Positions 2,002 through 43,007 of a stretch of 43,007 nt of DNA are shown in pieces. The translations under genes and the position numbers were made by a program. Source of the stretch: an uncultured bacterium (lineage in GTDB: Bacteria > Patescibacteriota > Minisyncoccia > Phycocordibacterales > UBA5272); contig CAILKS010000022.1 in NCBI GenBank assembly GCA_903834855.1, forward strand, positions 1-43,007, written 5' to 3'. The notes beneath the pieces are model-generated. The model did not search any database and was not told the origin of the DNA. It worked only from the letters and a program-made list of their open reading frames with translations. Within the stretch, counting starts at the first letter, position 1, and each line of letters starts with the position of its first letter.

Positions 2002-2048
2002 TCACTTAGTATATAGCAATAAGTATGATACTTAACCCCTATTTAAAA

Positions 2049-2200
2049 AATTATCAATTTTCAATTTTCAATTATCAAAAGATACAAATAAGCTACTTAA
2101 GCCAAAATTATCAATTTTCAATTATCAATTATCAAAAGATACAAATAAGCTACTTAAGCCAAAATTATCAATTATCAAAAGAAATACAAAGTATAATTGT
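2049..2200 (+). repeat. 57-bp tandem repeat, 2 full units (2049-2105 and 2106-2162, 1 mismatch) plus a partial third; each unit is a heptad tract (AATTATC AATTTTC ...) followed by AAAAGATACAAATAAGCTACTTAAGCCAA
   Basis: The two units were aligned base by base. The supplied ORF 2025..2249 is an artefact of this repeat. Confidence 0.85.
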
Positions 2201-2214
2201 GTTTATGAATTTAT

Positions 2215-2247
2215 TTGGAAATTGGAAATTGATAATTGAAAATTGTT
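2215..2247 (+). repeat. Family-A heptad tract (GGAAATT GGAAATT GATAATT GAAAATT G), inverted relative to 2049-2085
   Basis: Direct reading. It lies 40 nt upstream of the 2287 ATG. Confidence 0.75.
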
Positions 2248-2286
2248 AAGAATGTTATTACATAATATACTTAGTCTTATAATCAA

Positions 2287-2646
2287 ATGACTGAAGAACG
2301 TATATATAACCTAGAGAAAAGAACTTTGGCTTTTGGGCAGAATATTGTAGCTCTCTGTAAGGGCTTTAAGAGTGAGCCTCTTACTAGACCAATGCTTATA
2401 CAAATAATAAGGTCTGGAACTAGTATCGGGGCTAATTATGTCGAATCTACTGGTGCAAGCTCAAAAAAGGACTTTGCTCACAAGATTTTTATTTGCAAAA
2501 AAGAAGCCCAAGAAACCAAATATTGGCTTGCTATTATAGGCTCCACCTTTGAAGAGCAAAACATCCAAGTAAAAAATCTTCAAAAAGAGTGCCAAGAACT
2601 AGTCCTCATTTTCAATAAAATTGCTAGTTCCTCACGTGCAGAATAG
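2287..2646 (+). CDS. Four-helix-bundle protein of the 23S rRNA intervening-sequence protein family (Avd-like fold)
   Basis: Motifs IIRSGTSIGANYVES ... SKKDF ... KEAQETKYWL are typical of PF05635/TIGR02436. Length is 119 aa. Confidence 0.85.
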   Translation: MTEERIYNLEKRTLAFGQNIVALCKGFKSEPLTRPMLIQIIRSGTSIGANYVESTGASSKKDFAHKIFICKKEAQETKYWLAIIGSTFEEQNIQVKNLQKECQELVLIFNKIASSSRAE

Positions 2647-2667
2647 GCAATTTTATTGTGATATTTG

Positions 2668-2698
2668 TTTGAAAATTGATAATTGAAAATTGAAAATT
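2668..2698 (+). repeat. Family-A heptad tract (TTTGAAAATTGATAATTGAAAATTGAAAATT)
   Basis: It shares AAATTGATAATTGAAAATTG with 2226-2246, so the 2287-2646 gene is bracketed by a direct repeat. Confidence 0.75.
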
Positions 2699-2713
2699 AT
2701 TTTATCATTAATA

Positions 2714-2722
2714 TGATAAAAT
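2714..2722 (+). promoter_or_regulatory. Extended -10 (TGATAAAAT), 6 nt upstream of the dnaE ATG
   Basis: The sequence reads TGnTAAAAT-agaccc-ATG. Confidence 0.45.
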
Positions 2723-2728
2723 AGACCC

Positions 2729-5700
2729 ATGTTCATCCATCTCCGTAATCATACCCACTACTCCCTGCTCAAGGCCCTGCCAAAGGTGAAGGAACTTATT
2801 TCTGCTGCTAAAAATAATAAAATGGGATATGTTGCCATAACAGATTACAGTAACATGTACGGTACTATTGAATTTTTTTCAAAGTGTAAAAAGGAAAAAA
2901 TAAAACCAATAATTGGAGTTGAGTTCTCTCTTATTTTTAACGAAAGAACTTTCCAAACAATATTGATCGCTCGGACCTTAGAGGGGTACAAAAATTTAAT
3001 GAGAATAGTCTCGATTGTAAACGTAGATAATCCACTTAATCCAACCCTTAAAGAAGAGACTCTTGTAACTTACAAAAACGGCTTAACAGTTCTCTCTGGT
3101 GGTGTTAGTGGTGACATTAGTAATCTACTTGTAATAAATGAAAAAGATGCCGACTCACGACTTCTATTTTATAAAGAACATTTTGGTGATAATTTTTATC
3201 TAGAAATAAATCCACAAACTGGTATGGACCGTGGTGTTGAAATGCGCGATAAGACTATAGAGTATGCAAGAAAAACAAACACTCCCCTGGTGGCCACATT
3301 CAATACTCACTATATACATGATGCTGATAAAGCAGCTCATAAAACTCTTTACATGGTTCATGGAGATTTACATTCATCTGATGAATACAATCATCTGTTT
3401 CAAAAAGATTCATTTGCCTTTGTAGATACAGACACTGCTAAAAAAATATTTGCAGATACCCCTGACGCAATTTCAAATACTGTAAAAATTGCAGAAAGCT
3501 GCGAACTGGAAATCCCTCTTGGCGACTGGGTGTTTCCAAATATTGAACACAAGAAAAGTTACAATGAGGACTTAAGAGATCTAGCATACGAGGGTTTAGA
3601 AATTAGAAAAATGGAGTTAACTGATATTGTAAAAACTCGATTAGAGTATGAATTAAAAGTTATTGCAGATAAGGGTTATTCCCCTTATTTTTTGGTAGTT
3701 TATGACCTTTTACGATTTTCTCGAGAGAACGACATCCTCACAAACATTAGAGGTTCTGTTGCTGGTTCTTTGGTGACTTATCTTCTTAGAATTACAAAAT
3801 GCGATCCACTCGCATATAAACTTCCGTTTGAAAGATTCCTAAATCCTGAGAGACCTTCGGCACCGGACATCGATATGGATTATGCAGATACTCGTCGTGA
3901 TGAAGTTATTGATTATGCTCGTCGTAAATATGGAATAGATAATGTAGCTCAGATAGGAACATTCGGAACAATGATGGCACGTGGTGCTGTGAAAGATGTA
4001 GCTCGTGCAATGAAATATCCATACGTTGTTGGTGACCGTATTAGTAAATTAATTCCAATGCCAAAACAAGGATTCCCTGTGACTATAAAAGGTGCTCTAG
4101 AAGACATCCCAGAGCTTAAAGAATTGTATGACACAGACCGTGAGGTGCAAATAATTTTAGACATGGCACAAAAAGTTGAAGGATGTGCCAGACACATTTC
4201 CGTCCACGCTGCGGGAACAGTTATATCCCCTGCTCCACTTTGGGAATGGACACCTATACAAAAAGATCCAAAAGGTGGAAAAATAATTACTCAGTACGAT
4301 ATGTACACAATTGAAGATGCTGGACTGCTAAAGTTTGATTTTCTAGGAATTAGAAACTTAACCATATTGGGAGATGCGATTAAAATTGCAAAAGAAAATT
4401 ATAACATTGATGTAGATATAGAGGAGGTATCATTATCAGATGCAAAAACTTTTGAAATGTTATCTCGTGGCGAGACTATGGGATTATTCCAATTAAATGG
4501 TTCTGGTATGACAAGATTTTTGAAAGAACTAAAACCTAACGCTATCTTTGACATTAATGCCATGGTGGCCTTATATCGTCCTGGACCGCTAGAAATGATT
4601 CCTGAATACATAAGACGTAAACATGATCCATCACTCATCTCTTATCTTGACCCAAGACTAGAACAAATACTAGACCAATCTTTTGGAGTTATCGTCTACC
4701 AAGATGATGTTATGCTTATAGCCATTCATTTGGCTGGATATTCTTGGCTTGAGGCAGATAAATTACGTAAAGCTATGGGTAAAAAAATACCCGCAGAAAT
4801 GCAAGCGCAAAAAGAAAAACTATTAGCTGGATTCGTAGAGCATGGGCTGTCTGTAAAAAAGGGACAGAAGCTTTGGGAATTAATTGAGCCGTTTGCTGCA
4901 TATGGTTTTAACAAATGTTTAACTGGAGATACAAAAATTGCATCTGCAGAGACTGGCGAGATTCTAACAATAAGAGAAATATATTCCAATAATTTAAAAC
5001 CTAAATTATTAAGTTTGGGGAATGATGGCCTGCTTCAAAATAAAAAAATTACTGCAGTACTTGAAAATGGTATAAAAAATATTTATGAATTAAAAACTAG
5101 ATCTGGAAGAATAATTAGAGCAACGGGTAATCACCCTCTATTAACATTTAGTAAATGGAAAAATCTTGATGAAATTAAATCTGGTGAACGTATAGCCGTA
5201 CCCCGTAATTTATCGAGTCTAATCGGTAATGTAAAAGAAAAAGAAAAAGCTGCAATACTGGGATATTTAATATCAGAAGGTAATCTCTGCCACCCACATG
5301 GTATTTATTTCTATTCAACACAAGAAAATGAAATAAAAGATTTTATAAAAAATTGTAATAATTTCGAAAATTTTAAATATACATTAGATAAGAGTAAAGC
5401 TGCTACTTCTGTTTATTGTGGCCAAATAGACCAGAAAAAAGGAAATAATCTAAATAAGTGGGTTGAAAAACTAGGTCTAAAAAACAAAAAAGCTACAGAA
5501 AAAAATGTCCCCGATTGTGTCTTCAAATGGGACAAGGAAACTCTTTCTATTTTTATAGGAAAACTTTGGCAAGGTGATGGTTGTATCAGTATAAAAAATG
5601 AACAGGTATTTTATGCTACGAGTTCAAAAGTTCTAGCATATGACGTACAACATTTACTTTTAAGGTTTAGTATTTTATCTACAATTCATGAAAAGAAATT

Positions 5701-7225
5701 TAAATATAGAGGAGGAATAAAAATCGGATTTACTGTAGTAATTTCTCATAGAGAAAACTTACGTAAATTTAAAAGTACTATCGGTATGTATTTAATCGGT
5801 AAGAAAAAAGAAGATTTGAAAAAATTGCTCACGTTAACTGAAAATACTTTAGATATCTCTGCGAGAGGAACTAAGAATATTATACCAGCGGAAGTAATGA
5901 TACATATACGAAGGATAATGTTAGAAAAAAATGTCTCTGTTAAAAAAATATCTAAAGATACTGCTCTTTCGGAGAGATTATTCTCATATGATAAAAAGAA
6001 GACTGGCTATCAAAGAGCTGTAATAGAAAAGCTAGGAAAGTATTTAAAATCAAAGGAAATTTTACAAATCGCTAATAGTGATATTTATTGGGATGAGGTT
6101 GTTTCTATAAAAAAATCTGGTAAAGAAATGACTTATGACTTAACTATTCCACCTCATCATAACTTTGTTGCAAATGATATTATTGTTCACAATTCGCATG
6201 CTGCAAGCTATGGAAGAGTGGCGTACCAGACCGCTTATATGAAGGCAAACTTCCCTGTTGCATATATGACAGCAATCATGACTAACGAATCTGGTGATGT
6301 AGAGAAAATTGCTGAAATTGTTTCTGAATGTAAAAGAATGAATATAAAAGTTTTACCACCAAATGTAAATACTAGTGCAGGAGGGTTCTCCATCGTTCAA
6401 GAAGGAACAGAGAACGATGAATTTTCAATTTCTAATTTTCAATTTTCAAAAAATACAGAGACAAATGCAAACACAGATGCGGATGCGATTAGTAATAATA
6501 CAAGTAATGAAGAAATACTTTTCGGTTTGTATACAATTAAAAATCTTGGAGTCGATATATCAGATGCAATAATTGAAGAAAGAAACAAAAATGGAAAATA
6601 TAAATCTTTCGAAGATTTTATACTTCGTGTTACTCATAAAAATTTAAATAAAAAATCTCTAGAGGCATTAACTAAATGCGGAGCACTTGATGATTTAGTA
6701 GAACGTGGGGAAGTTTTAGCAAACTTAGAAAGTATTTTAGAATTTCATAAACATGTTGTAAAAGATAATGTGATGCAAGATAGTTTATTTGGAGGAATGG
6801 AGACTTCTTCTTTTGTTATGAAAAAAGCTCCCCCTGTTTCTCAAGAACAAAAACTTTCTTGGGAAAAAGATTTGCTTGGACTTTTCGTTTCTGGTTTTCC
6901 TCTTGACCCTTGGAAAGAAAAACTTGAAGCTCGAGGAATAGACATAACTAAAGTTCACCACGATACTCCTGATGGTAAAGAAGTTTCTCTGGGAGTCATA
7001 ATTGAAAATATAAAAATAACTATCACAAAAAAAGGTGACCAGATGGCTCTCGTCAAATTACGTGATTATAAAGGAACTATAGAAGTTGCTGTTTTTCCAG
7101 AAACTTACAAGAAATATAAATCACTACTTATAATAGATGTGCCACTTGTTGTTAGGGGGAAAGTATCGACTAGAAATGGTGAGAAGACTATAGCAATAGA
7201 TGAGGTTCGTAATTTACGACAGTAA
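2729..7225 (+). CDS. dnaE: DNA polymerase III alpha subunit (DnaE) interrupted by an intein
   Basis: N-terminal PHP motif (HLRNHTHYSLL), a GSVAGSLV-type palm, the FAAYGFNK|SHAASYGRVAYQTAYMKANFP fingers motif split by the intein, and a C-terminal OB-like region. Confidence 0.95.
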   Translation: MFIHLRNHTHYSLLKALPKVKELISAAKNNKMGYVAITDYSNMYGTIEFFSKCKKEKIKPIIGVEFSLIFNERTFQTILIARTLEGYKNLMRIVSIVNVDNPLNPTLKEETLVTYKNGLTVLSGGVSGDISNLLVINEKDADSRLLFYKEHFGDNFYLEINPQTGMDRGVEMRDKTIEYARKTNTPLVATFNTHYIHDADKAAHKTLYMVHGDLHSSDEYNHLFQKDSFAFVDTDTAKKIFADTPDAISNTVKIAESCELEIPLGDWVFPNIEHKKSYNEDLRDLAYEGLEIRKMELTDIVKTRLEYELKVIADKGYSPYFLVVYDLLRFSRENDILTNIRGSVAGSLVTYLLRITKCDPLAYKLPFERFLNPERPSAPDIDMDYADTRRDEVIDYARRKYGIDNVAQIGTFGTMMARGAVKDVARAMKYPYVVGDRISKLIPMPKQGFPVTIKGALEDIPELKELYDTDREVQIILDMAQKVEGCARHISVHAAGTVISPAPLWEWTPIQKDPKGGKIITQYDMYTIEDAGLLKFDFLGIRNLTILGDAIKIAKENYNIDVDIEEVSLSDAKTFEMLSRGETMGLFQLNGSGMTRFLKELKPNAIFDINAMVALYRPGPLEMIPEYIRRKHDPSLISYLDPRLEQILDQSFGVIVYQDDVMLIAIHLAGYSWLEADKLRKAMGKKIPAEMQAQKEKLLAGFVEHGLSVKKGQKLWELIEPFAAYGFNKCLTGDTKIASAETGEILTIREIYSNNLKPKLLSLGNDGLLQNKKITAVLENGIKNIYELKTRSGRIIRATGNHPLLTFSKWKNLDEIKSGERIAVPRNLSSLIGNVKEKEKAAILGYLISEGNLCHPHGIYFYSTQENEIKDFIKNCNNFENFKYTLDKSKAATSVYCGQIDQKKGNNLNKWVEKLGLKNKKATEKNVPDCVFKWDKETLSIFIGKLWQGDGCISIKNEQVFYATSSKVLAYDVQHLLLRFSILSTIHEKKFKYRGGIKIGFTVVISHRENLRKFKSTIGMYLIGKKKEDLKKLLTLTENTLDISARGTKNIIPAEVMIHIRRIMLEKNVSVKKISKDTALSERLFSYDKKKTGYQRAVIEKLGKYLKSKEILQIANSDIYWDEVVSIKKSGKEMTYDLTIPPHHNFVANDIIVHNSHAASYGRVAYQTAYMKANFPVAYMTAIMTNESGDVEKIAEIVSECKRMNIKVLPPNVNTSAGGFSIVQEGTENDEFSISNFQFSKNTETNANTDADAISNNTSNEEILFGLYTIKNLGVDISDAIIEERNKNGKYKSFEDFILRVTHKNLNKKSLEALTKCGALDDLVERGEVLANLESILEFHKHVVKDNVMQDSLFGGMETSSFVMKKAPPVSQEQKLSWEKDLLGLFVSGFPLDPWKEKLEARGIDITKVHHDTPDGKEVSLGVIIENIKITITKKGDQMALVKLRDYKGTIEVAVFPETYKKYKSLLIIDVPLVVRGKVSTRNGEKTIAIDEVRNLRQ
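4916..6193 (+). mobile_element. Intein (426 aa) with a LAGLIDADG homing-endonuclease domain, inserted in DnaE between ...YGFNK and SHAAS...
   Basis: It starts CLTGDTKI (block A), carries GNHPLL (block B) and two LAGLIDADG-like motifs (AAILGYLISEGNL and IFIGKLWQGDGCI), and ends NDIIVHN followed by a +1 Ser. The extein junction restores the conserved GFNKSHA motif. Confidence 0.85.
6422..6456 (+). repeat. Family-A heptad tract inside dnaE (TTTTCAA TTTCTAA TTTTCAA TTTTCAA AAAATAC)
   Basis: CAATTTTCAAAAAATACAGA (20 nt) is identical to the reverse complement of intergenic copy 22961-23006, and 19 of these nt recur in copy 7436-7474. It is translated as ...FSISNFQFSKNT... Confidence 0.7.
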
Positions 7226-7235: not shown

Positions 7236-7480
7236 TCGTCTTAATTTTCAAGTATCAATTTTCAATTTTCAAGTAGATACAATCAGGGAACCAAAATTTC
7301 CAATTATCAATTTTCAATTTTAAAGTAAACATAATACGGAAACATGCATTTTTTGAAAATTTATAATTCTCTTGTTATTTATCGTATTTTTATTGCGTTT
7401 TTTGAAAATTGATAAACAAAATTATTTTGGTATTTCCTGTATTTTTTGAAAATTGAAAATTGGAAATTGAAAATTATTTT
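7236..7480. repeat. Cluster of family-A heptad tracts in both orientations (TTTTCAA-type at 7244-7274 and 7297-7323; TTGAAAA-type at 7349-7360, 7399-7413 and 7444-7474)
   Basis: Direct reading of the dnaE-secG spacer. Confidence 0.75.
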
Positions 7481-7778: not shown

Positions 7779-7799
7779 GCAAGCACACCAGATAGTCGA

Positions 7800-7873
7800 A
7801 AGTCCATAAAGTCAAAAGTTTATAAAGAAATTGCATAATGCGAATTCAGTATCAACTTTTTACTTTATGAACT
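7800..7873. repeat. AT-rich imperfect inverted repeat of heptad words (AAGTCCATAAAGTCAAAAG / CTTTTTACTTTATGAACTT) downstream of secG
   Basis: The arms at 7800-7818 and 7855-7873 pair at 17 of 19 positions. Related words recur at 16186-16216. Confidence 0.55.
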
Positions 7874-7899
7874 TTACAAACTTGATGAACTAATCATGT

Positions 7900-9615
7900 A
7901 TGGATACGGCATCAATAAACTCAATAATTAAATCAAGAAAAGAAAAATTTCTCACTGTTTATAAAACACTTACACCTGAGAAAGTAATCGTCGTCTGGCT
8001 ACTTATAATATTGGCCGGTGTTTTACTGTTCGCTTCATTACTTCAAATAAATAACCGTTATCTTTTATCTGTACCCTCTCGTGGTGGATACATACATGAA
8101 GGCATATTAGGAACACCTCGTTTTATTAATCCAGTACTTGCCTCATCTGACGCTGATAAAGATATGGTGGGATTAATTTATGCCGGCCTTACTAAACGTG
8201 ATTATACAGGAAATATAATTCTTGATGTAGCGTCTTCAATAGAAGAAAGTTCTGATAAGCTTCACTATAATATAAAAATAAAACCTGAGGCTCGTTTTAG
8301 TGATAATACACACGTTAAAGCTGATGACTTTATCTATACCATTTCTCTAATACAAAACCCTCTTATAAAAAGTACACACCGTGTTGAATGGGAAGGTATA
8401 ACTATTGAAAAAATTAGTGACTCAGAGTTTTCTATATCACTAAAAAAAGCGTATCCATTATTTATGAATGTCTTAACTATTGGAATACTTCCAAAACATA
8501 TCTGGAAAAATTTAACAGAAGAACAAATTAGTCTAAGTGATTTAAATATTCATGCAATAGGAAGTGGCCCGTTTTATATAAAAAATATTACAAGTGTTTC
8601 TGGTATACCTATATCTTTCACACTTTCAGAAAATAAATACTACACACTTGGACGTCCAAACATACAAGAAGTTGTCATCACAAGTTATCAAAATGAAAAA
8701 TATTTAATTCAAGCTTTTCAAAATGGTGATATAGACAGATTACATGGTGTATCTTCAGAAAATATAGCAGGTTTACAAGTTGCTACAAGCTCTATACGTA
8801 CATCACTTTTGCCTCGTACCTTTAGTGTATTTTTTAATCCAAATAAAACTGATTTCCTTTCTGATAAAAAAATCCGTTCTGCTTTAAATATGGCCATTAA
8901 TAAGCAAGCAATAATAAATGATGTTCTAAAAGGTTACGGAAAAGTTATTGAGACTCCTTTCCCTTTTGATGAAGACCAACCAGAATCTACTTATAATAAA
9001 GAAGGCGCAATAAAAATACTTAGCCAAAGTAAATATTTAAAAAAGGCATCTAGTACTATTGAAATAACTCTATCAACTACAAACAATAGTGAAATGAAAA
9101 AGATAGCTGAAATGATACAAAAAGACTGGGAGGATGTTGGCGTACATACGACTCTAGCTGTTTATGAGGTTGCAGACCTAAACCAAAGTGTTATAAAAGA
9201 AAGAGATTTTCAAGCTTTATTATATGGTTCAATTACCAGCTCTCCTGCTGATTTATATGCGTTTTGGCATTCATCACAGAGATCTTATCCAGGATTAAAC
9301 ATATCTAATTATGTAAGTAAAAAATTAGATTCTAACTTAGAAATAATACGTGAGGACGAAGACGAATTAACTAGAATAAATGCCTATGCTTCAGTAAAAG
9401 CAGAGTTTGCTGATGAAGTTCCGGGAATATTTTTATTTGCTCCATCACTTATATATGTAACTCGTGATTTTGTTAATTCCCCTCTTCCTATATATAGTTT
9501 AGATAATTCTTCAAGATTTGATCTTGTATCTTCTTGGTATAGATATACGGAGAAAGTTTGGCCTAAGACATATTACAAAAAATTATTAACAACATTAGAA
9601 AATATTATTCATTAA
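7900..9615 (+). CDS. Family-5 (peptide/nickel type) ABC substrate-binding protein with an N-terminal TM anchor
   Basis: SBP_bac_5-like motifs (YNIKIKPEARFSDNTHVKADDFIYT). The size (571 aa) and a single N-terminal hydrophobic helix also fit. No permease or ATPase genes are adjacent. Confidence 0.75.
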   Translation: MDTASINSIIKSRKEKFLTVYKTLTPEKVIVVWLLIILAGVLLFASLLQINNRYLLSVPSRGGYIHEGILGTPRFINPVLASSDADKDMVGLIYAGLTKRDYTGNIILDVASSIEESSDKLHYNIKIKPEARFSDNTHVKADDFIYTISLIQNPLIKSTHRVEWEGITIEKISDSEFSISLKKAYPLFMNVLTIGILPKHIWKNLTEEQISLSDLNIHAIGSGPFYIKNITSVSGIPISFTLSENKYYTLGRPNIQEVVITSYQNEKYLIQAFQNGDIDRLHGVSSENIAGLQVATSSIRTSLLPRTFSVFFNPNKTDFLSDKKIRSALNMAINKQAIINDVLKGYGKVIETPFPFDEDQPESTYNKEGAIKILSQSKYLKKASSTIEITLSTTNNSEMKKIAEMIQKDWEDVGVHTTLAVYEVADLNQSVIKERDFQALLYGSITSSPADLYAFWHSSQRSYPGLNISNYVSKKLDSNLEIIREDEDELTRINAYASVKAEFADEVPGIFLFAPSLIYVTRDFVNSPLPIYSLDNSSRFDLVSSWYRYTEKVWPKTYYKKLLTTLENIIH

Positions 9616-11517: not shown

Positions 11518-11564
11518 AGATTGGAGAATGGGAAATTTTATACTTTTGTAAATTATAGTTACAA

Positions 11565-11656
11565 AAGGTCTAAGGTCTAATTTCTAATTCACCTAATGGA
11601 ATGCGGGTGCTAAAGTATTTTTATTAGACCTTAGAAATTAGGTTAATTAGGCCTTG
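11565..11656. mobile_element. 92-bp MITE-like palindromic element flanked by a perfect 17-bp direct repeat (GTAAATTATAGTTACAA at 11548-11564 and 11657-11673)
   Basis: The termini AAGGTCTAA ... TTAGGCCTT are inverted, and the internal arms TCTAAGGTCTAAT / ATTAGACCTTAGA pair. A second copy lies at 39255-39352 in the opposite orientation, estimated by eye at 85% identity over about 80 nt. Confidence 0.6.
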
Positions 11657-11739
11657 GTAAATTATAGTTACAATTTTGTATTTTATATATTACTGCCCAC
11701 TAGTCACTGCTTACTGCTCACTGTATACTATAAACACAT

Positions 11740-12909
11740 ATGCAAGCTATAACTCGCAATAAACTTCTTCTTGCAACATTTTTGATGACTATACTTTATG
11801 CCTTTCATTACGGCATACCTTTATATGTAACATCAACTTATTTGCATATATATTTTGGCTCATCTACCATATCGTCACTCTATGTAATTGCTAGCTTGGT
11901 TACATTGTTAGCGTCAATACATACAGCTAAATATATAAAAAAATTCCATACCTATACTTTTACAATGATGCTCGTTATTGCTGAAATGATAGTTATGACA
12001 GCTTTTGCTATAACAAAAAATCCTATACTGATTGGTTTATTTTTTGTCGTTCATTTTTGTCTACAAACATTGTTATATATATTAATAAATGTATTTGTAG
12101 AAACCTTTAGCAAACAGGCAAACACTGGAAGTGTCAGAGGAATATTTTTAGTTTTACTAAACCTTGGAATACTTATTTCACCAATTATTGGAGGAGCTAT
12201 ATTAACAAGAGGATCTTTCGCGGCACTTTATATAGTATCAACTGTTATATTAGTTCCTTTTATGTTTTTTCTACATCAATATTTAAATCATATAGAAGAA
12301 CCAGCTTATCATAGTGTAGATATGATCAGCGCCCTTAAACGTGCCTGGAAAAATAAAGACTTAAAAGGAGCATTAATTGCCTCATTAATGCTTGAATGTT
12401 TTTATGCTGTTATGGTTATTTATTCACCCATATATTTAGCATCACTTGGAATACCTCTTGTAATATATTTATCTGTTATATTACCTTTCGCTTTATTACC
12501 ATTTATAATTTTGCCATATGAGCTAGGCTGGCTGGCAGATACAAAAATTGGTGAGAAAGAACTTATGATTTTAGGATTAATTATTGTCTCAGTTTCTTTG
12601 TTTTTAATGGTAATTGTAAATACTCCAAATATAATACTTTGGATTTTAATACTTTTGCTTTCTCGCATAGGTGCAGCTTGTGTTGAAACAATGACTTATA
12701 CTTATTACTTTAAAAAAATATCTGCTGAGGATACTTCTTTAACAGCTTTATTTAGTAATACAAGAAGCCTGGCAATTATAATAATTGGAGCTCTTGGATT
12801 TTTAATAAATCCACTACTTGCGACTTATCCGCAAATAATATTTATAATTCTAGGTTCAGTAATATTATTTAGTATTTTATACATAATACCTATTAAAGAT
12901 ACTCGTTAA
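11740..12909 (+). CDS. MFS-type transporter
   Basis: 389 aa with about 12 hydrophobic segments in a 6+6 layout around a central loop. Confidence 0.65.
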   Translation: MQAITRNKLLLATFLMTILYAFHYGIPLYVTSTYLHIYFGSSTISSLYVIASLVTLLASIHTAKYIKKFHTYTFTMMLVIAEMIVMTAFAITKNPILIGLFFVVHFCLQTLLYILINVFVETFSKQANTGSVRGIFLVLLNLGILISPIIGGAILTRGSFAALYIVSTVILVPFMFFLHQYLNHIEEPAYHSVDMISALKRAWKNKDLKGALIASLMLECFYAVMVIYSPIYLASLGIPLVIYLSVILPFALLPFIILPYELGWLADTKIGEKELMILGLIIVSVSLFLMVIVNTPNIILWILILLLSRIGAACVETMTYTYYFKKISAEDTSLTALFSNTRSLAIIIIGALGFLINPLLATYPQIIFIILGSVILFSILYIIPIKDTR

Positions 12910-14160: not shown

Positions 14161-14810
14161 TTATCCATATATTGCTCCATCTACTTCGCTATTAAAAATT
14201 TTTATTCCTGCGCCGTATATCTATATACGTCTTAGTCTTAAAAACTTTTAATAACTCGTATCTGAAACAATATCTGAATAAAAAATATAGTTGGTCTACT
14301 TTGTCGTGGGTCCCTGCCGACTTCGCAAGCGGTGCGGTAACTACGTCTCCTCGTTGGCCTTCCCGCGCCGCGTATTTGTCGCTGTAAAAAAGTAACTACG
14401 AGTTTTGTTTTTATCCATGCCTTGTATCTATCAGTTTATAAAAAACAAAGAATTAGATTTTGCCTAAGACGCATCTGCTTCGTTAGAAAGAAATTTTATT
14501 TTGGCTAGCGAGGAGTTAAATAAAAAAGTAATCTTTTATATTTAATCCGAGCGACGACAAAAAACTCTTTCGTCAACGTACTACTTGTACGTCTCCTCAT
14601 AAAATTTCTTTCTGCCTTGCATCTATCGTCTTATGCAAACAAAAGTTTGGATTTAATCGCAAAAATTTCCTGCGCCTCGTCTCTGTATCCTTATAAAAAA
14701 GAAACTGTGTGAGCCTCGTATCTATTGTCTTATACAAACAAAGGTTTGGATTTAATTACAAAAAATTTCTGCGCCTTGCATCCGTCGTCTTATGCCAACA
14801 AAAAAGTTAT
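14161..14810. repeat. Degenerate tandem array, about 9 copies of a ~35-nt unit (consensus approx. CTGCGCCTYGYATCTATCGTCTTATRCAAACAAAAAG), including a ~100-bp tandem duplication (14611-14710 vs 14711-14810)
   Basis: Units start near 14208, 14255, 14362, 14417, 14461, 14611, 14668, 14711 and 14768. The interspersed word GTTTGGATTTAATYRCAAAAA occurs twice. Confidence 0.7.
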
Positions 14811-14889: not shown

Positions 14890-14925
14890 TTTTTTTGAAA
14901 ATTGATAATTGATAATTGATAATTA
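14890..14925 (+). repeat. Family-A heptad tract (TTTTTTGAAAATTGATAATTGATAATTGATAATTA)
   Basis: Direct reading. It abuts the 3' end of the minus-strand Ddl-like gene. Confidence 0.75.
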
Positions 14926-29611: not shown

Positions 29612-29638
29612 TTTTACGAAGGTCTTGCCTTCGTAAAA
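29612..29638. terminator. Perfect 11-bp hairpin TTTTACGAAGG-tcttg-CCTTCGTAAAA downstream of uvrB
   Basis: Direct reading. Confidence 0.6.
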
Positions 29639-29696
29639 TCAAAGTATCCCCGATTTGTATTTTCTAATGTCTATTGTCTATTGTCTCCCCATGAGG

Positions 29697-32282: not shown

Positions 32283-33563
32283 CTATTTATAATACCTCTT
32301 AATAAATTCTTTTTTAAATTCTAAAAAGTTACCAGAAAGTATTGCCTCTCGTGCTTCTTCGCAAAGAGTAGTTAAGAATTTTAAATTATGAATTGATGCG
32401 AGTGTGGCAGCTAGCATTTCATCTGCTTTAAATAGATGATTCAAATAACTTTTTGTAAACTGATGTGTATACCAAGATTCTTCATCACTAATCGGTGACA
32501 TATCGTTTTTATAAATTGCATTTGTAATATTTATGCGTCCATCTTTTGTATAAATAGCACCATTACGAGCAATGCGAGTTGGTGCAACACAATCAAAGGT
32601 ATCGACACCATTTTCTATTCCCATTAAAATATCAATCGGCTCACCTATTCCTAATAAATGTCTAGGCTTTCCCTCAGGCAGTATTTCATTAACCCATTTT
32701 ACAGCTGTACCCATATCTTCTTTTGTAAAACTCCCACCTATTCCATAACCATCAAAGTCCATAGCACCTAATACTGTTGCTGACTCTTTTCTTAATTCTT
32801 CATACGATCCACCTTGGACCACACCAAAGAGCGCCTGCATTTTCCCTGTTGCACCAGATACTCCCAGTCTTTTATGTTCATCTAAACTTCTTTTTGCCCA
32901 AGCGTGAGTACGATCTATTGCTTCACGTTGATATGCAACTGGGGCAAGAGGTGATGTGCATTCATCAAATGCAAAAAATATATCAGCACCCAAATTGTGT
33001 TGTATATTCATACTTACCTCTGGAGTAAATCTATGAGTTGATCCATCAATTACAGATTTAAAAGTAACACCATCATCATCTATTTTTGCTAATTTTTCAT
33101 GTGTTTCTTCACGAGCATTACTTTCACTTTCTCTTTTACTTATTTCTTCACTCGTTGCAATCTTACTCACACCATGACCGAGCGCGTGACCTAAAGAAAA
33201 AACTTGAAAACCCCCCGAATCAGTAAACGTCGGCATTAATTTGTATTCTTCTTTTTGTATTTCCTCTTTCCTCTCAACTCTTTCCTCTTTCCTATTTTTC
33301 CAATTCATCATCCTCGCAAAACCCCCATGCTTTTTTACAATCTCATCCCCAGGTTGAAGATATAAATGATAAGTATTAGCGAGTACAGCTTGTGCACCAA
33401 CACAATCCCTAATCTGCTCAGGTGTTAAAGACTTCACAGTTGCTTTTGTGCCCACAGTAATAAAAGCTGGTGTTTTTATATCACCGTGTGGAGTATGAAT
33501 AATGCCCGCACGCATAAGAGGTATACCTTCTATTTTTTTAATTATCTCAAAAGAAAATGACAT
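32283..33563 (-). CDS. tgt: tRNA-guanine transglycosylase (queuine tRNA-ribosyltransferase) homolog with insertions and without the CxCxxC zinc motif
   Basis: TPAFITVGTKATVK, ANTYHLYLQPG, TDSGGFQVFSLG, FDECT, LLGIGEP, FDCVAPTR. Confidence 0.9.
   Translation of the reverse strand: MSFSFEIIKKIEGIPLMRAGIIHTPHGDIKTPAFITVGTKATVKSLTPEQIRDCVGAQAVLANTYHLYLQPGDEIVKKHGGFARMMNWKNRKEERVERKEEIQKEEYKLMPTFTDSGGFQVFSLGHALGHGVSKIATSEEISKRESESNAREETHEKLAKIDDDGVTFKSVIDGSTHRFTPEVSMNIQHNLGADIFFAFDECTSPLAPVAYQREAIDRTHAWAKRSLDEHKRLGVSGATGKMQALFGVVQGGSYEELRKESATVLGAMDFDGYGIGGSFTKEDMGTAVKWVNEILPEGKPRHLLGIGEPIDILMGIENGVDTFDCVAPTRIARNGAIYTKDGRINITNAIYKNDMSPISDEESWYTHQFTKSYLNHLFKADEMLAATLASIHNLKFLTTLCEEAREAILSGNFLEFKKEFIKRYYK
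33260..33301. repeat. Six tandem heptads (TTTCCTC TTTCCTC TCAACTC TTTCCTC TTTCCTA TTTTTCC) inside tgt
   Basis: Direct reading. On the coding strand they encode part of the lineage-specific insert KNRKEERVERKEEIQKEE. Confidence 0.7.
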
Positions 33564-39352: not shown

Positions 39353-39399
39353 CTTTATAACTTTTTACTAGTTCTGCACAATAAGAAATAACATAGTTG

Positions 39400-39408
39400 T
39401 GATACCAT
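39400..39408 (+). promoter_or_regulatory. Extended -10-like box (TGATACCAT), 6 nt upstream of the pfkB-family ATG
   Basis: The sequence reads TGnTACCAT-aagtgt-ATG. Confidence 0.35.
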
Positions 39409-39414
39409 AAGTGT

Positions 39415-40407
39415 ATGGAAAAGTCTTATGACATAATAGCAATTGGAGATACGGTTGTTGATGTATTTATCAAACTTGATGTTGGTCATGTTCAAGAAAC
39501 AGCAACTGGAGCTGAATTATGTTTACCTTATGGTGCCAAAATCCCATATGTTTCTGCAGTTCCAATCCCAGCTGTTGGGAATAGTGCAAACGCTGCAGTG
39601 TCTGCCTCACGACTTGGACTATCAAGTGCTTTAATTACATTTTTAGGAAAAGATGAACATGGGAAGGAATGTCTAGATAGATTAAATGAAGAAAAAGTTA
39701 GTACAGAATTTATTACACAAGAAGATGGTAAGCCAACAAATTATCATTATGTACTTTGGTATGGAGATGACCGTACAATATTAATAAAACATGCGGATTT
39801 TCTTGAAAAATTACCAGAAAACCTTACTCCACCCCAATGGCTTTATCTTTCTTCTCTTGGTGCTCATACTGAAGAATTTCATGATGAAATTACAGATTAT
39901 GTAGAAAAAAATCCCGATGTAAAACTTGCCTTTCAGCCAGGGACTTTCCAATTAAAAATTCATGATGAATTAATTGATTTATATAAACGAGTAGCAGTAC
40001 TTTGTATGAATAAAGAAGAGGCGCAGGAAATTTTAAAAACTCCTGATGAACACGAAATGAAAATGTTGCTTGATGGATTAGAATCTTTTGGACCAAAAAC
40101 AGTTATCATAACTGATGGCCATAGTGGCGCTTATATGAAATATGAAAATACATATTTCAATATGCCGATATTCCCTGACATTGCCCCTCCACTTGAACGT
40201 ACTGGCGCTGGGGACGCTTTCTTTTCAACATTCATTTCATATCTTGCAAAAGGATTTGACCCAGCATATGCAATTAGACGTGCTCCAATAAATAGTATGA
40301 ATGTCGTGCAACATGTCGGTGCTCAAGAAGGACTTTTAACAGAATCTGCGATTGAAGAATTATTAAAAAAAGCTCCGGAGGATTACCAACTAAAAATACT
40401 GGAGTAA
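39415..40407 (+). CDS. PfkB/ribokinase-family carbohydrate kinase
   Basis: An N-terminal IGDTVVDVF pattern, a C-terminal TGAGDAFFSTF motif, and a 330-aa length. Confidence 0.8.
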   Translation: MEKSYDIIAIGDTVVDVFIKLDVGHVQETATGAELCLPYGAKIPYVSAVPIPAVGNSANAAVSASRLGLSSALITFLGKDEHGKECLDRLNEEKVSTEFITQEDGKPTNYHYVLWYGDDRTILIKHADFLEKLPENLTPPQWLYLSSLGAHTEEFHDEITDYVEKNPDVKLAFQPGTFQLKIHDELIDLYKRVAVLCMNKEEAQEILKTPDEHEMKMLLDGLESFGPKTVIITDGHSGAYMKYENTYFNMPIFPDIAPPLERTGAGDAFFSTFISYLAKGFDPAYAIRRAPINSMNVVQHVGAQEGLLTESAIEELLKKAPEDYQLKILE

Positions 40408-41018: not shown

Positions 41019-41040
41019 TTCAACAATCCTTGCCCAAACG

Positions 41041-41067
41041 AAAAGCCCCGCAACGCGGGGCTTTTTT
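41041..41067. terminator. Bidirectional intrinsic terminator AAAAGCCCCG-caacg-CGGGGCTTTTTT
   Basis: Direct reading. It lies between the convergent 40512 ORF and the transketolase C-subunit gene. Confidence 0.8.
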
Positions 41068-41077
41068 AATGTTTAAA

Positions 41078-42058
41078 TTACACCACTCTCTTAATTTTCT
41101 CCACAATATGTTTTGCAGATAATCCATACTCATCATAAAGTTCTTGCATCTTTCCACTCTGACCAAATCTATCCTCAACTCCAATACGAATTACTTTCAT
41201 TGGATTATGTTCCGCTAAATATTCTGTTACAGCACTTCCTAGTCCACCGTTTGACTGATGTTCTTCTAAAGTCACAACTGCTCTAACCCCGCGAGCAAAT
41301 CTCAAAAGAAAAGCTGTATCGAGTGGTTTAACTTGTGGCATATTCACAACCGTAACACCAATGCCTTCTTTTTCTAATTCCTTTGCTGCTTTTATCGCTT
41401 CATAAATAATAGGCCCACAAGCAACTATTCCGACTGATAATCCAAACTCTCCTTCTTTTCTTTTTGGAACATACATTATATAAGCTTTCTTTGGTGAAAA
41501 ACTATAATCATCAGGAAGAATGAGTGGGGTATTCTCACGAGTTAAACGTAAATAAGCCGGTGTTTTTGTCGTTGCAATATATTTTGTAATCTCTCTGGCC
41601 TCAACTGCATCACAAGGAACATATACTTCCATATTTGGAATCAATCTCATAAGCGCTATATCTTCTAAAGCTTGATGAGTCGCACCATCAGGGCCAACTG
41701 ATATACCAGCATGTGCTCCAACTATTTTTACGGGTACATTATTATAAGCAATAGTGGTACGAATTTGTTCCCAATTTCTTCCAGGAGAAAACATTGCATA
41801 ACTCGCCATAAAAGGAATTTTTCCCATTGAGGCTAAACCACTTGCCACTCCTGACATTGCTTGCTCTGTAATTCCCATTTCAAAAAATCGTAAAGGAAAT
41901 TTATCTTTAAATAAATTCATTTTTACACTATCGGTTAAATCTGCACAGAGCGCAACGACACGTGAGTCTTTTTCTCCAGCAATAACCAAACCATCACCAA
42001 ATCCTTCACGGGTTGATTTTTCTTCTTCTTTTGGGGTAAATAAAGTTGTGCGTAGCAT
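41078..42058 (-). CDS. Transketolase, C-terminal subunit (pyrimidine-binding and C-terminal domains)
   Basis: REGFGDGLV, FFEMGITEQAM, GPDGATHQALEDIALMR. It lies immediately downstream of the N-terminal subunit gene. Confidence 0.9.
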   Translation of the reverse strand: MLRTTLFTPKEEEKSTREGFGDGLVIAGEKDSRVVALCADLTDSVKMNLFKDKFPLRFFEMGITEQAMSGVASGLASMGKIPFMASYAMFSPGRNWEQIRTTIAYNNVPVKIVGAHAGISVGPDGATHQALEDIALMRLIPNMEVYVPCDAVEAREITKYIATTKTPAYLRLTRENTPLILPDDYSFSPKKAYIMYVPKRKEGEFGLSVGIVACGPIIYEAIKAAKELEKEGIGVTVVNMPQVKPLDTAFLLRFARGVRAVVTLEEHQSNGGLGSAVTEYLAEHNPMKVIRIGVEDRFGQSGKMQELYDEYGLSAKHIVEKIKRVV

Positions 42059-42063
42059 ATATT

Positions 42064-42930
42064 TTAGGCCTCTCCGTGGGTTATTTTTCCACGTAAAGTC
42101 CTTATCTCTTTCAATGCAATTTTTGCCAATTCTTCATCTGGAGTTTTTCCATGCCATCTATAATCTCCCTCGATTGAAGAGATTCCTTTTCCTGGAATAG
42201 TGTGAGCAATAATTACCGTTGGTTTATCGAGCGAACTTTTTGCCATTCCAACAGCGTGAACAATATCACGAAAATCATGTCCATTTATTTCAATAGCATG
42301 CAAATTAAAACTTTCTATTTTATCTTTCAAAGATTCCAGTGGTAAAACTGTTTCTGTATAACCATCAATCTGAATAGTATTTCTATCGATAATAGTTATG
42401 ACATTATTTACTTTAAATTTACCGAGATGAAGTAACGATTCCCACACTTGTCCTTCATTCATTTCTCCATCACCCATTAAACAATAAATATATCTCTCTG
42501 GTTTATGATTATCTATTCTATCAGCAAGTGCCATACCAATTGCCTGAGATAATCCGCAACCAAGTGGACCAGATGTTACTTCAACACCAGGAAGTGATTC
42601 ACGGTGTGGATGCCCTTGAAGACGCGAACCAAACCTGCGCAATGTTTTAAGTTCAGATACAGAAAAATATCCAGCATGAGCAAGTGAAGCATATAAAACT
42701 GGTGCGATATGACCATTAGATAAAATTACTCTATCTCTTTCTTTCCAAGCTGGATGTTCTGGATTGTGATTAAGTAATCTAAAATATAAACATGTAAAAA
42801 TATCCGCCATATCAAGTGAACCAGCAGTGTGCCCACTCTTCGCCTCAAGTAACATTTTAATTATACTTTCACGAATATCCTCAGCACGAAGAGTTAGCGC
42901 TTGTATTTCTACATCAGTGATTGAATGCAT
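42064..42930 (-). CDS. Transketolase, N-terminal (TPP-binding) subunit
   Basis: SGHTAGSLDMADIF, LSNGHIAPVLYA, GPLGCGLSQAIGMA, GDGEMNEGQVWE. The start is moved to the ATG at 42930 (MHSITDVE). Confidence 0.9.
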   Translation of the reverse strand: MHSITDVEIQALTLRAEDIRESIIKMLLEAKSGHTAGSLDMADIFTCLYFRLLNHNPEHPAWKERDRVILSNGHIAPVLYASLAHAGYFSVSELKTLRRFGSRLQGHPHRESLPGVEVTSGPLGCGLSQAIGMALADRIDNHKPERYIYCLMGDGEMNEGQVWESLLHLGKFKVNNVITIIDRNTIQIDGYTETVLPLESLKDKIESFNLHAIEINGHDFRDIVHAVGMAKSSLDKPTVIIAHTIPGKGISSIEGDYRWHGKTPDEELAKIALKEIRTLRGKITHGEA

Positions 42931-42936
42931 GAGTAT

Positions 42937-42945
42937 AGTATAGCA
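42937..42945 (-). promoter_or_regulatory. Extended -10 (TGCTATACT), 6 nt upstream of the transketolase ATG
   Basis: The minus strand reads TGCTATACT-atactc-ATG. Confidence 0.45.
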
Positions 42946-42951
42946 GAAATA

Positions 42952-42983
42952 CAATTTTCAATTTTCAATTTTCAATTTTCAAA
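42952..42983 (-). repeat. Family-A heptad tract, (TTTTCAA)x4 on plus = (TTGAAAA)x4 on minus, directly upstream of the transketolase promoter
   Basis: Direct reading. Confidence 0.8.
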
Positions 42984-43007
42984 GTGGATACGAAATACCT
43001 TAATAAT

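Follow-up and report, generated by a model that had tools for sequence, protein, structure and literature searches.

The 43,007-nt stretch of DNA analyzed here (the window) belongs to a tiny uncultured CPR bacterium with a genome of 688 kb (0.69 Mb), labelled G000. Between its genes, and occasionally within them, the window carries arrays of tandem short words, hairpins built from such words, and one gene of the PF05635 "23S rRNA intervening-sequence protein" family (Table 1). This gene represents the TTGAWAA word family among the gene-bearing cassettes, and its product matches PDB 2RLD (E=6.7e-14). The arms next to the gene are direct, and an inverted arm set, formed jointly by the three copies at 2041-2178 (cassette-arm match score 27; inverted-partner scores 22-23), lies 100-240 nt upstream. 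Arms of the same family after the dnaE stop codon constitute a gene-less inverted set (inverted-partner scores 23-25).

Several features were followed into relatives. The complete dnaE unit with its TGTATTT head was found only in G000 and G014, the same site in G045 carries YACTGCY-type heptads, and the whole insert of roughly 31 aa is missing in the rest of the genus. In tgt, residues 90-110 of the protein segment are missing in 13 of 30 genus genomes. The word family of the array preceding the uvrA ATG recurs at the equivalent uvrA position in L001, L006 and L008, and the TTGAWAA arm in the uvrA 5' region is also present in sister contig L105, where it is split at a unit boundary by a 22-nt GC hairpin. 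At 29577-29686, folding revealed no pairing between the two outward-facing arms.

The tracts reported in the initial annotation were all recovered, at the same coordinates or a few nt away: the perfect (TTACTGG)x4 at 18167-18194, the YACTGCY x5 array at 11691-11725, GGTCTAA GGTCTAA TTTCTAA at 11565-11589, CAGATTA/CAGAAAC/CAGACGA at 25827-25850, the TAGACAT/CAGACAT units at 25663-25689, the TTTCAAG/TTTCCAG tract, as AGTTTCA-type units, at 29579-29605, and the GTCTATT tract, as TATTGTC units, at 29658-29686, in addition to TTGAAAA/TTGATAA arrays in 13 places.

Table 1. Repeat arrays, hairpins and the PF05635 gene in the window
Position	Strand	Feature	Remarks
88-131	-	TNGAAAC x4 arm, cassette C8 family	Close to the edge of the window, within a mechanically called ORF
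2041-2084, 2106-2141, 2163-2178	-	Three TTGAWAA-family arm copies	From TRF and sequence; each ends in AAAGATACAAA, within a 57-nt unit repeated 2.3 times
2213-2249	+	TTGAWAA array TTGGAAA TTGGAAA TTGATAA TTGAAAA	37 nt upstream of the PF05635 gene
2287-2646	+	PF05635 gene, S23p four-helix-bundle family, 119 aa	Pfam 57 bits, cut-off 33.8
2669-2698	+	Downstream cassette arm, exactly four TTGAWAA units + TT	22 nt past the PF05635 stop codon, 30 nt ahead of the dnaE ATG
6418-6457	-	Complete unit TGTATTTT+(TTGAWAA)x4+TT	In frame in dnaE, antisense; encodes ..DEFSISNFQFSKNT..
7239-7475	.	TTGAWAA arms after dnaE stop	Antisense 7239-7274, 7295-7331; sense 7437-7475 with TGTATTTT head
11565-11650	.	Gene-less hairpin, arms GGTCTAA/TTTCTAA + complement TTAGACC/TTAGAAA	Fold -29.8 kcal/mol, z=-3.75; 17-nt direct repeat flanks it at 11548-11673, inverted arms present; arm family shared with PF05635 copy on contig C9
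11691-11725	+	YACTGCY x5 array	Runs into extended -10 box TGTATACT, 10 nt before ATG of MFS transporter gene
14895-14924	+	Solo TTGAWAA x4 +TT arm	Adjoins 3' end of convergent gene
15896-15926	-	CTAnAAC x4 array	Directly upstream of TGCTATACT-n6-ATG; PF05635 cassette arm match in sister species G008, score 20
16149-16213	.	Palindrome AAATACAGGTGGCCACGAAGTGGCCACCTGTATTT + flanking 9-nt-word array (AACTTTATA)	Identical copy of palindrome at 25858-25892
18138-18262	.	Gene-less hairpin filling nrdA-nrdB spacer	Fold z=-3.17; arm scores 24-28; arms ATAGTTT/GTAGTTA/CTAGTTA and (CAGTAAC)x4 + TATTAAC-type units; family TAACYAG, arms of C17 cassette
22968-23006	+	TGTATTTT+(TTGAWAA)x4 unit	19 nt past uvrA stop, antisense to uvrA
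25663-25689	-	TCTAAAA/TCTAATG/TCTGATG array	Ends 12 nt before uvrA ATG (...CTACCCCAC ATG); G045b cassette arm match, score 21
25728-25763	+	TTGAWAA x4 arm	uvrA 5' region
25827-25910	.	Long hairpin, ACAGATT/ACAGATA/ACAGAAA arms around GGTGGCCAC GC stem	Fold -49 kcal/mol, z=-9.9
25923-25951	+	CTCTnnn-family array	Arm family of cassette C67b, score 26
29577-29686	.	GC hairpin TTTTACGAAGG..CCTTCGTAAAA between two outward-facing arms of different families	Arms (TNGAAAC)x4 on minus strand, TGTATTTTC+(TAWTGTC)x3 on plus strand
33253-33297	+	TGTATTT+(CCTCTTT-type)x5 unit	In frame in tgt, antisense
42947-42990	-	Perfect (TTGAAAA)x4.4 arm	5' end of window's last gene

Period-7 arrays across the genome

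The excess of period-7 signal in intergenic DNA over shuffled controls anticipated by the initial annotation was borne out at every scale analyzed. In the 6.6 kb of intergenic DNA in the window, lag-7 match frequency was 0.335, versus 0.292 in Markov-1 shuffles (z=7.2), with z only -1.5 to 0.8 at lags 5, 6 and 8. Autocorrelation over the whole genome yielded z=28.6 at lag 7, 14.9 at lag 14 and 8.1 at lag 21 in intergenic DNA, and the signal was absent from coding DNA. At a threshold of at least 16 of 21 lag matches we detected 267 period-7 arrays, as against 19-20 each at periods 6 and 8, and TRF identified 355 period-7 arrays versus 72 once spacers had been shuffled, for a total of about 350 in G000.

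The further proposal that nearly every spacer contains such tracts proved too generous, since an array is present in about half of the spacers of at least 80 nt. That the words form locus-specific families (ten or more in G000), often as inverted pairs, was confirmed: an inverted partner within 250 nt was found for 113-137 of 351 arrays, compared to 3-12 with shuffled queries. About one third of the arrays thus have a nearby partner with which they fold into hairpins, and about two thirds have none within 250 nt. Three of four test spacers were predicted to form long hairpins with the tracts as arms (z -3.2 to -9.9).

Copy number in G000 arrays has its mode at 4 units (28-30 nt) and is capped at 4-5, with almost no array exceeding 5, and the units are position-specific. 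One unit of roughly 40 nt recurs at dozens of loci, and many arrays share a conserved TGTATTT head. The copy cap, the position-specific units and the conserved head together indicate that each array represents a discrete unit some 40 nt long, and the copy-number distribution is not of the open-ended, slippage type.

Array words and the arms of PF05635 cassettes

A profile search identified 10 PF05635 genes in G000, the highest count among 41 genomes sampled from the genus. Each of them is flanked on both sides by arms of tandem 7-9-nt words, with its own word per gene, and all 20 PF05635 genes that were sampled from 13 further genomes share this layout. Arm complementarity equalled or exceeded the best of 50 shuffles in 24 of 30 cassettes, and was above it outright in 22. 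The cassettes combine a PF05635 ORF, an inverted-repeat border and a stem length of ~28 bp of tandem heptamers, as in Coxiella. The initial annotation missed that the word families are those of PF05635 cassette arms, with one cassette lying within the window.

We compared the 341 arrays located away from the 10 PF05635 genes with cassette arms. Arms of the 10 G000 cassettes were matched by 221 (65%), and a further 60 matched cassette arms from other species of the genus, bringing the total to 82%; the remaining 60 (18%) matched no sampled cassette. Shuffled arrays matched in 1 of 341 and 0 of 120 instances (<1%). Within the window, 21 of 24 arrays matched cassette arms. The 23S rRNA gene of G000 harbors two gene-less repeat-armed hairpins, of the family flanking cassette C47.

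Array density varies widely among relatives. G000 has 7.8 arrays per 20 kb and sister contig L105 has 7.7, most members of the genus have 0-3, and the rate over 641 kb of related loci is 0.5. Density rises with the number of PF05635 genes in a comparison of 20 genomes (rho=0.80), but the points are not independent because the genomes compared are relatives. A prediction set beforehand held, in that G045, with 9 PF05635 genes, presents 5.7 arrays per 20 kb, and G017 and G024, with zero PF05635 genes, present zero arrays in 80-100 kb. G023 harbors 5 cassettes and almost no gene-less arrays, indicating that proliferation is not automatic. The tracts extend beyond the window, although they are largely limited to the species of G000 and a few relatives. 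At orthologous insertion sites the word varies between species and the arms remain complementary: the gap|rpiB site carries TAACYAG in G000 and GTCTAnn in G016 and G023, and the words at the ...SRPQFR* site are GCTACAA, GCTAACA, CCTACAA or GTCTGAn.

Arrays and cassettes are thus related in sequence and architecture, including the copy cap, and in their distribution among lineages, down to the hairpins in the 23S gene. We consider it probable that the arrays derive from small selfish cassettes of the IVS type, as arms that are gene-bearing, gene-less or solo, and that paired arms form RNase III-type stems. A complete cassette consists of about four antisense 7-nt units, an AAATACA box, the PF05635 gene (S23p, four-helix-bundle), a TGTATTT box and about four sense units, and occupies the space between a host gene's stop codon and the following gene's start codon; every lineage of cassettes has its own word, and the 10 gene-bearing cassettes in G000 have 10 words. 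Most of the ~350 arrays would fall into three kinds, namely paired arms with a short GC hairpin in place of the gene, solo arms, and whole units in frame within tolerant loops of dnaE and tgt. In a transcript, paired arms could form a stem of about 28 bp, which RNase III, encoded in G000, might cut in the manner known from the Coxiella 23S IVS, separating the neighboring cistrons. After the cut, a short, unstructured leader consisting of the G-poor sense arm may be left, the genome making no use of Shine-Dalgarno sites. Mismatches between arms have no strand asymmetry (96 G-U versus 106 A-C), so nothing yet favors an RNA stem over a DNA-level structure.

PF05635 homologues crystallise as pentamers. 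A quite unlikely extension would have each PF05635 paralogue act as a ring-shaped oligomer reading the 7-nt units of its own arms, approximately one per subunit, with protein-word pairs driving the copying or protection of the cassette and its gene-less arms. The bacterial heptamer repeats described decades ago (STRR, LSSR, TAACTGA) would then represent footprints left by a single widespread and unrecognised class of selfish protein-repeat elements. The phased protein-binding array raised in the initial annotation may also apply. The cassette link itself gives long-unexplained bacterial heptamer repeats a testable origin.

Alternative origins and known heptamer systems

The position of many arrays invites the explanation that they are themselves expression signals, promoter-upstream or in 5' leaders as with the Beggiatoaceae TAACTGA repeats, and that PF05635 cassettes merely use or mimic them. 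The period-7 signal is maximal at -40 to -10 of start codons, the G-poor strand is sense in 70 of the 98 arrays ending at most 25 nt from a start, and in about 29 cases the array ends 0-8 nt from the ATG. Many arrays abut an extended -10 box TGnTAnnnT or the motif CTAyCCCy-ATG, and TTGAWAA x4+TT has sigma-70 geometry (TTGAAA-17-GATAAT). There is no Shine-Dalgarno use, an SD-like motif being present in 9% of genes, as in the control, and MacGregor's repeat-bearing genes are SD-poor too (PMC4679880). The array at uvrA falls within the 5' UTR in relatives, where a conserved promoter lies upstream of it. We nevertheless regard this explanation as unlikely. Arrays are equally frequent in convergent spacers (11 of 21 spacers of 80-149 nt), where no promoter or leader is needed, and they occur in either orientation, within ORFs and within the 23S gene. 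Spacing to the -10 box is variable, promoter-like matches in the window number 93 versus 91.6 in shuffles, orthologous spacers of sister species present other word families or none, and the same genes are expressed without arrays in most of the genus.

The period-7 signal is also maximal from 0 to +40 past stop codons, and many arrays adjoin GC-rich tetraloop hairpins that lead into TGTATTTT, with symmetric A-tract/U-tract. The arrays could extend intrinsic terminators that act in both directions, or could be REP/BIME-like mosaics spread by RAYT-like Y1 transposases encoded in G000, which has three RAYT-like genes with flanking REP-like hairpins, one of which recurs at ~29620. Against this, the TGTATTT head accompanies arrays in dnaE and tgt, sites without a terminator; arrays are present in divergent spacers and are not themselves palindromes; and RAYT genes and array density are mismatched, G014 having arrays without a RAYT match and G008 four matches and few arrays. 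Both versions appear very unlikely. Slippage or expansion of heptamers, raised by the initial annotation as a generative process, would make the arrays ordinary long simple-sequence repeats arising locus by locus during replication and unrelated to any gene. In many prokaryotes no LSSR class is more abundant than heptanucleotides (Mrazek 2007, as summarised in PMC4679880), Coxiella strains differ by whole units (2 versus 3; PMC4990558), one G000 locus has 6 perfect GCTACTG units, and words drift between species. As the main process, however, slippage fits poorly and is highly improbable, for the copy-number distribution is capped rather than geometric, dozens of loci share position-specific units and the TGTATTT head, the insert in dnaE is either there as a whole unit or missing, and most arrays match a cassette arm.

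The initial annotation knew of no described equivalent, but several are on record, namely STRR, heptanucleotide LSSR, the Beggiatoaceae TAACTGA repeats and the stem heptamers of the Coxiella 23S IVS, and the G000 arrays are best read as a variant of known STRR/LSSR heptamers and IVS. STRR are short tandemly repeated repetitive heptanucleotides of heterocystous cyanobacteria. Like the G000 arrays, they are tandem 7-nt repeats, almost wholly intergenic, with several unrelated words per genome and a sporadic phylogenetic distribution, as are heptanucleotide LSSR (Mrazek et al. 2007, cited in PMC4679880). In common with both, G000 has tandem 7-nt units above chance in non-coding DNA; unlike them, its arrays combine the copy cap, position-specific units and TGTATTT head with words that are the arms of gene cassettes.

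Marine Beggiatoaceae, cyanobacteria and Bacteroidetes carry TAACTGA repeats, for which a role as translational regulators has been proposed in Beggiatoaceae. These repeats resemble the TAACYAG and GAAACTN families of G000, and as in G000 they occur as 2-6 forward copies immediately upstream of starts, with rare SD sites and a few copies inside ORFs (MacGregor 2015, PMC4679880). That system has one dominant word and inverted sets in 1 of 170 cases, whereas G000 has many words and a third of its arrays inverted; no PF05635 link was reported by MacGregor 2015 (PMC4679880). REP/BIME elements with RAYT, and MITEs, are likewise short dispersed extragenic hairpin repeats, in which many copies lack a gene and a few "master" copies carry one. 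Unlike in these, the gene in G000 encodes a four-helix-bundle protein without known catalytic motif rather than a transposase, the arms are internally periodic, and the arrays are neither palindromic nor tracked in density by RAYT matches.

Among the closest counterparts is the 23S IVS with S23p ORF of Coxiella burnetii and Leptospira, which shares the gene family and carries the ORF in the loop of a terminal-inverted-repeat stem (PMC4990558). In Coxiella the S23p ORF lies inside a 28-bp stem, the length of four G000 units, and tandem GACAGAT heptamers, 2 or 3 by strain and hence varying by whole units, lie just upstream of the ATG, with the RNase III cut at the first repeat (PMC4990558). IVS are inserted in rRNA helices 9, 25 or 45, whereas in G000 the gene-bearing copies lie outside the 23S rRNA helices, between genes that encode proteins; G000 further differs in the number of its paralogous cassettes, 10 with 10 words, and in its hundreds of arms that are solo or lack a gene, and cleavage there is inferred. 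Its 23S gene nonetheless resembles an IVS-bearing one in containing repeat-armed hairpins of one cassette family, and the words of the long hairpin at 25827-25910 are similar to the GACAGAT heptamers in the Coxiella IVS (PMC4990558).

Heptamer arrays in the host genome

The window comprises an entire contig (C22) from a 688-kb genome (G000; 84 contigs, 35% GC, 97% complete), and its genes include those for RNase HII, a PF05635 protein, DnaE, a solute-binding protein, an MFS transporter, NrdA/NrdB, UvrA and UvrB. The identity of its UvrA (85-90%) to proteins of 'Candidatus Paceibacterota/Nomurabacteria' MAGs indicates that the host is a CPR/Patescibacteria bacterium; an origin in Cyanobacteria or Beggiatoa was ruled out because all uvrA relatives are Patescibacteria/Paceibacteria MAGs.

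Every heptamer tract listed in the initial annotation was recovered in the window, where intergenic DNA shows an excess of matches at lag 7 (0.335 vs 0.292 in Markov-1 shuffles, z = 7.2) and lags 5, 6 and 8 are flat. The tracts extend beyond the window, as genome-wide intergenic autocorrelation is pronounced at lags 7 (z = 28.6), 14 (z = 14.9) and 21 (z = 8.1); coding DNA presents only a period-3 pattern. A sliding detector requiring at least 16 of 21 lag matches identified 267 period-7 arrays in G000, vs 19-20 for periods 6 and 8, and TRF reported 355, compared with 72 when spacers were shuffled. At a looser setting (at least 15 of 21) the detector returned 351 arrays, occupying approximately 8% of intergenic DNA. 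The proposal that nearly every spacer carries such repeats was too broad, since only about half of the spacers of at least 80 nt hold an array, although convergent and divergent spacers are indeed included. The inverted pairing also described there holds for a third of the arrays (113-137 of 351 with an inverted partner within 250 nt, vs 3-12 for shuffled queries). The paired arms are able to form long stems, and three of four spacers tested fold into long hairpins (z from -3.2 to -9.9). One hairpin occupies positions 18133-18262, in the nrdA-nrdB spacer.

Array lengths peak sharply at 30-31 nt, and copy number within a family is mostly four and almost never above five. Units are position-specific, as in the family with consensus T[TG]GAAAC TAAAAAC TGGAAAC TTGAAAC, and the arrays are not open-ended microsatellites. 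Approximately ten word families were distinguished (TTGAWAA, TNGAAAC, CTAnAAC, TAACYAG, GTCTAAT/TCTAAAA, CTCTnnn, GCTAnnn, TTGTCAA, YTGCTnn and the 9-mer GACTTTATG), and many arrays carry a conserved head, (c)TGTATTT(tc). A recurrent module consists of an antisense array, GAAAATACAG, a GC stem with a UUCG/GAAG loop, CTGTATTTTC and a sense array. Arrays concentrate from 0 to +40 past stop codons and from -40 to -10 ahead of start codons, and of 98 arrays lying close to a start, 70 have their G-poor strand in sense orientation.

Two further repeats were observed among the arrays. The 22-nt GC hairpin CCCGCCTTGCCGGCGAGGCAGG interrupts sister-species arrays exactly at a heptad boundary and adjoins an array in G000, giving the impression of an even smaller mobile repeat lodged within the arms. 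A perfect palindrome of 35 nt, AAATACAGGTGGCCAC-GAA-GTGGCCACCTGTATTT, is present in two identical copies in the window and in near-identical form on several other contigs and in the sister contig L105; it looks like a bidirectional terminator.

PF05635 cassettes and their arms

One window ORF encodes a PF05635 (23S rRNA intervening-sequence, S23p) protein, for which 2RLD, a structure with five chains, is the nearest solved match. With both of its arm sets, the window's cassette covers positions 2041-2698. G000 harbors ten PF05635 genes, the highest number among 41 genomes of the genus, and each of the ten lies between arms made up of tandem 7-9-nt words, no two genes sharing a word; the C22, C8 and C17 copies, for example, have TTGAWAA, TNGAAAC and TAACYAG, respectively. 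In these cassettes the upstream arm terminates with AATACA(nn)ATG, which reverse-complements the TGTATT head on downstream-type arms. Among arrays away from the ten genes, 221 of 341 match the cassette arms at a score reached by only 1 of 341 shuffled arrays, and 60 more match cassette arms of other species (shuffled, 0 of 120); within the window, 21 of 24 arrays match. These comparisons show that the arrays are homologous to cassette arms, in defined units of approximately 28-40 nt, and, with the controls, that they constitute a real, genome-wide arm system of intervening sequence (IVS)-like PF05635 cassettes. RNase III, the enzyme that excises true IVSs, is encoded in G000; one cassette lies immediately upstream of its gene (rnc), in the same orientation.

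The arrangement recurs in the genus. All 20 PF05635 genes cut from 13 other genomes have inverted heptamer arms and occupy the gap between a neighbor's stop codon and the start codon of the gene that follows. For 24 of 30 cassettes, arm complementarity is at least as high as the best of 50 shuffles, and for 22 it is outright higher. At orthologous cassette sites the word changes between species and the two arms remain complementary: the gap/rpiB site carries TAACYAG in G000 and GTCTAnn in two other genomes (G016 and G023), and the site following a gene ending in SRPQFR* carries GCTACAA, GCTAAAG, GCTAACA/GCCAAAA, CCTACAA or GTCTGAn across seven species. In a tree of the PF05635 proteins the groups follow the word and not the site, at no more than moderate support, a pattern consistent with joint inheritance, or joint movement, of arms and gene.

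G000 and L105 (86% nucleotide identity) carry 7.8 and 7.7 arrays per 20 kb, respectively. The 20-kb samples of 19 other genomes hold 0-3 arrays, and related uvrA loci, 641 kb in all, have a density of 0.5 per 20 kb. Across 20 genomes, which as relatives are not independent points, density correlates with PF05635 copy number (rho = 0.80). A genome with nine PF05635 genes (G045), predicted beforehand to be array-rich, yielded 21 arrays in 74 kb, and two genomes lacking such genes (G017 and G024) yielded none in 80-100 kb; the exception is G023, with five genes yet 0.2 arrays per 20 kb. Where spacers of G000 and L105 are orthologous, their array families differ or just one of the two species has an array.

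The same units also occur within genes. The complete unit in dnaE is common to G000 and G014, its place in G045 is taken by four YACTGCY-type heptads, and most of the genus is without the entire insert of approximately 31 aa. A TGTATTT+(CCTCTTT)x5 unit lies in tgt, in a 21-aa segment absent from 13 of 30 genus genomes. At 4540 nt against a 2925-position model, the 23S rRNA gene in G000 must carry approximately 1.6 kb of insertions; the two hairpins examined there have arms of CAACTTT/GACTTTATR words, the family that flanks the cassette on contig C47.

Coordinates of array-related and other features in the window, on other contigs of G000 (C-numbers) and on the sister contig L105
Sequence	Position	Feature	Details
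Window	2287-2646	PF05635 ORF	57 bits vs cut-off 33.8
Window	2713-2731; 11723-11742; 39399-39417	Extended -10 box	Examples
Window	6418-6457	Unit within dnaE	TGTATTTT+(TTGAWAA)x4, antisense, in frame
Window	~7794-7891; 16190-16213	CAACTTT/GACTTTATR words	
Window	13788-14160	Gene-free conserved stretch	91.7% identical to L105
Window	14614-14793	99-nt repeat	x1.8
Window	16149-16183; 25858-25892	35-nt palindrome	
Window	29060-29536	Two small overlapping ORFs	Minus strand
Window	~29615-29645	REP-like palindrome	TTACGAAGGCAAGACCTTCGTAA
C9	4425-5343	PF05635 cassette upstream of rnc	
C42	~1460	Hairpin CCCGCCTTGCCGGCGAGGCAGG	Reverse strand
C44	2677-7216	23S rRNA gene	
C53	1-672	RAYT-like gene	
C33	1386-1772	RAYT-like gene	
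C49	1222-1848	RAYT-like gene	
L105	~150-175; ~9360-9385	Hairpin CCCGCCTTGCCGGCGAGGCAGG	

Start signals and possible roles of the arrays

In 38 genes across the genome, the first base of an extended -10 box (TGnTAnnnT) is exactly 15 nt upstream of the ATG, and in a further 28 the distance is 16-17 nt, which implies leaderless mRNAs. Motifs resembling Shine-Dalgarno (SD) sites precede 9% of starts, no more commonly than in a control window, showing that G000 makes no use of such sites; regions upstream of starts are A-rich and G-poor, with T at -1.

In Coxiella burnetii, the 23S IVS consists of an S23p ORF within a 28-bp stem, with three tandem GACAGAT heptamers and a degenerate fourth ahead of the ATG (2 or 3 copies by strain) and an RNase III cut at the first GACAGAT repeat, and the Xanthomonas S23p forms a homopentameric ring (PMC4990558). 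Insertions in CPR rRNA include 23S_rRNA_IVP ORFs, called functionally uncharacterised (PMC11270868). By analogy with true IVSs, arms in a polycistronic RNA of G000 would pair into a stem of approximately 28 bp, long enough for RNase III, whose cut would separate the cistrons, free the cassette RNA and leave the remaining G-poor sense arm as a short unstructured leader. Gene-less hairpins may be the counterparts of ORF-less IVSs, and solo arms may represent decay products or single insertions. A mismatch test for a sense-strand RNA stem revealed no asymmetry between G-U and A-C mismatches of the arms (96 vs 106).

The best rival to this arm-and-stem mechanism holds that the arrays are primarily expression signals, either promoter-upstream or 5'-leader elements, that the cassettes exploit. 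Their positions, their orientation bias and the lack of SD sites agree with such a role, but copies also lie in convergent spacers, in ORFs and in rRNA, spacing is variable and turnover between sister species is rapid; fixed -35 or UP elements, specifically, were ruled out by the varying distance to the extended -10 box and by the presence of arrays in convergent spacers. Pure slippage or expansion of heptamers, suggested initially as one possible generative process, fits less well: copy number is capped and the units are specific to their positions. A terminator or REP-RAYT reading also fits less well: GC-rich REP-like palindromes flank all three RAYT-like Y1 (HUH) transposase genes of G000 (motifs YHIYNRGN...MPNHFHIL), but a RAYT-driven REP system was rejected because array density is not tracked by these genes. 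One of the palindromes recurs in the window. An all-frame stop-codon barrier and binding by Rho, Csp or S1 are further conceivable roles, entertained as ideas.

Reports of heptanucleotide repeats between bacterial genes go back to 1990, to our knowledge with no accepted origin or function, and the arrays, for which no described equivalent was initially known, are a CPR instance of these already known, unexplained repeats. TAACTGA heptamers lie just upstream of SD-less starts in Beggiatoaceae, cyanobacteria and Bacteroidetes, where binding by S1, Csp or CsrA has been proposed (PMC4679880). Our literature search returned no paper tying genome-wide heptamer arrays to PF05635 cassettes, and nothing relevant on CPR-specific heptamer repeats or leaderless promoters. 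Here the two are tied quantitatively in a very small genome, with ten cassettes, ten words and four-fifths of some 350 arrays traceable to cassette arms, and with the same units also present in the 23S rRNA gene and in an essential gene for a polymerase. This raises the questions of whether RNase III cutting of stems punctuates operons in an organism without SD sites, whether the S23p ring binds its own heptamers, and by what route units of approximately 40 nt move. There are also consequences for the annotation of CPR genomes: the arrays fragment assemblies, displace start-codon calls and introduce in-frame inserts into conserved proteins.

Other elements

An Rfam scan of the window returned no family match. 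The gene-free stretch listed in the table is better conserved in L105 than its flanking coding DNA (80-87% identity), contains no ORF of at least 100 aa, and may be an undescribed structured RNA or small gene; the 99-nt repeat adjoins it. Two small overlapping ORFs separate uvrB from the next gene; judged by eye, the second of them (...RVGDYRVIFHLKKKEVFIVLIAHRSVVY..) looks like a RelE/ParE-type toxin with its antitoxin. In more distant Paceibacteria (uvrA loci L039-L079), a conserved hairpin, ACACCCCCTATGAAC..GGCGGGGTGT, lies approximately 50 nt upstream of uvrA in place of heptamer arrays, and may be a regulatory RNA or operator.
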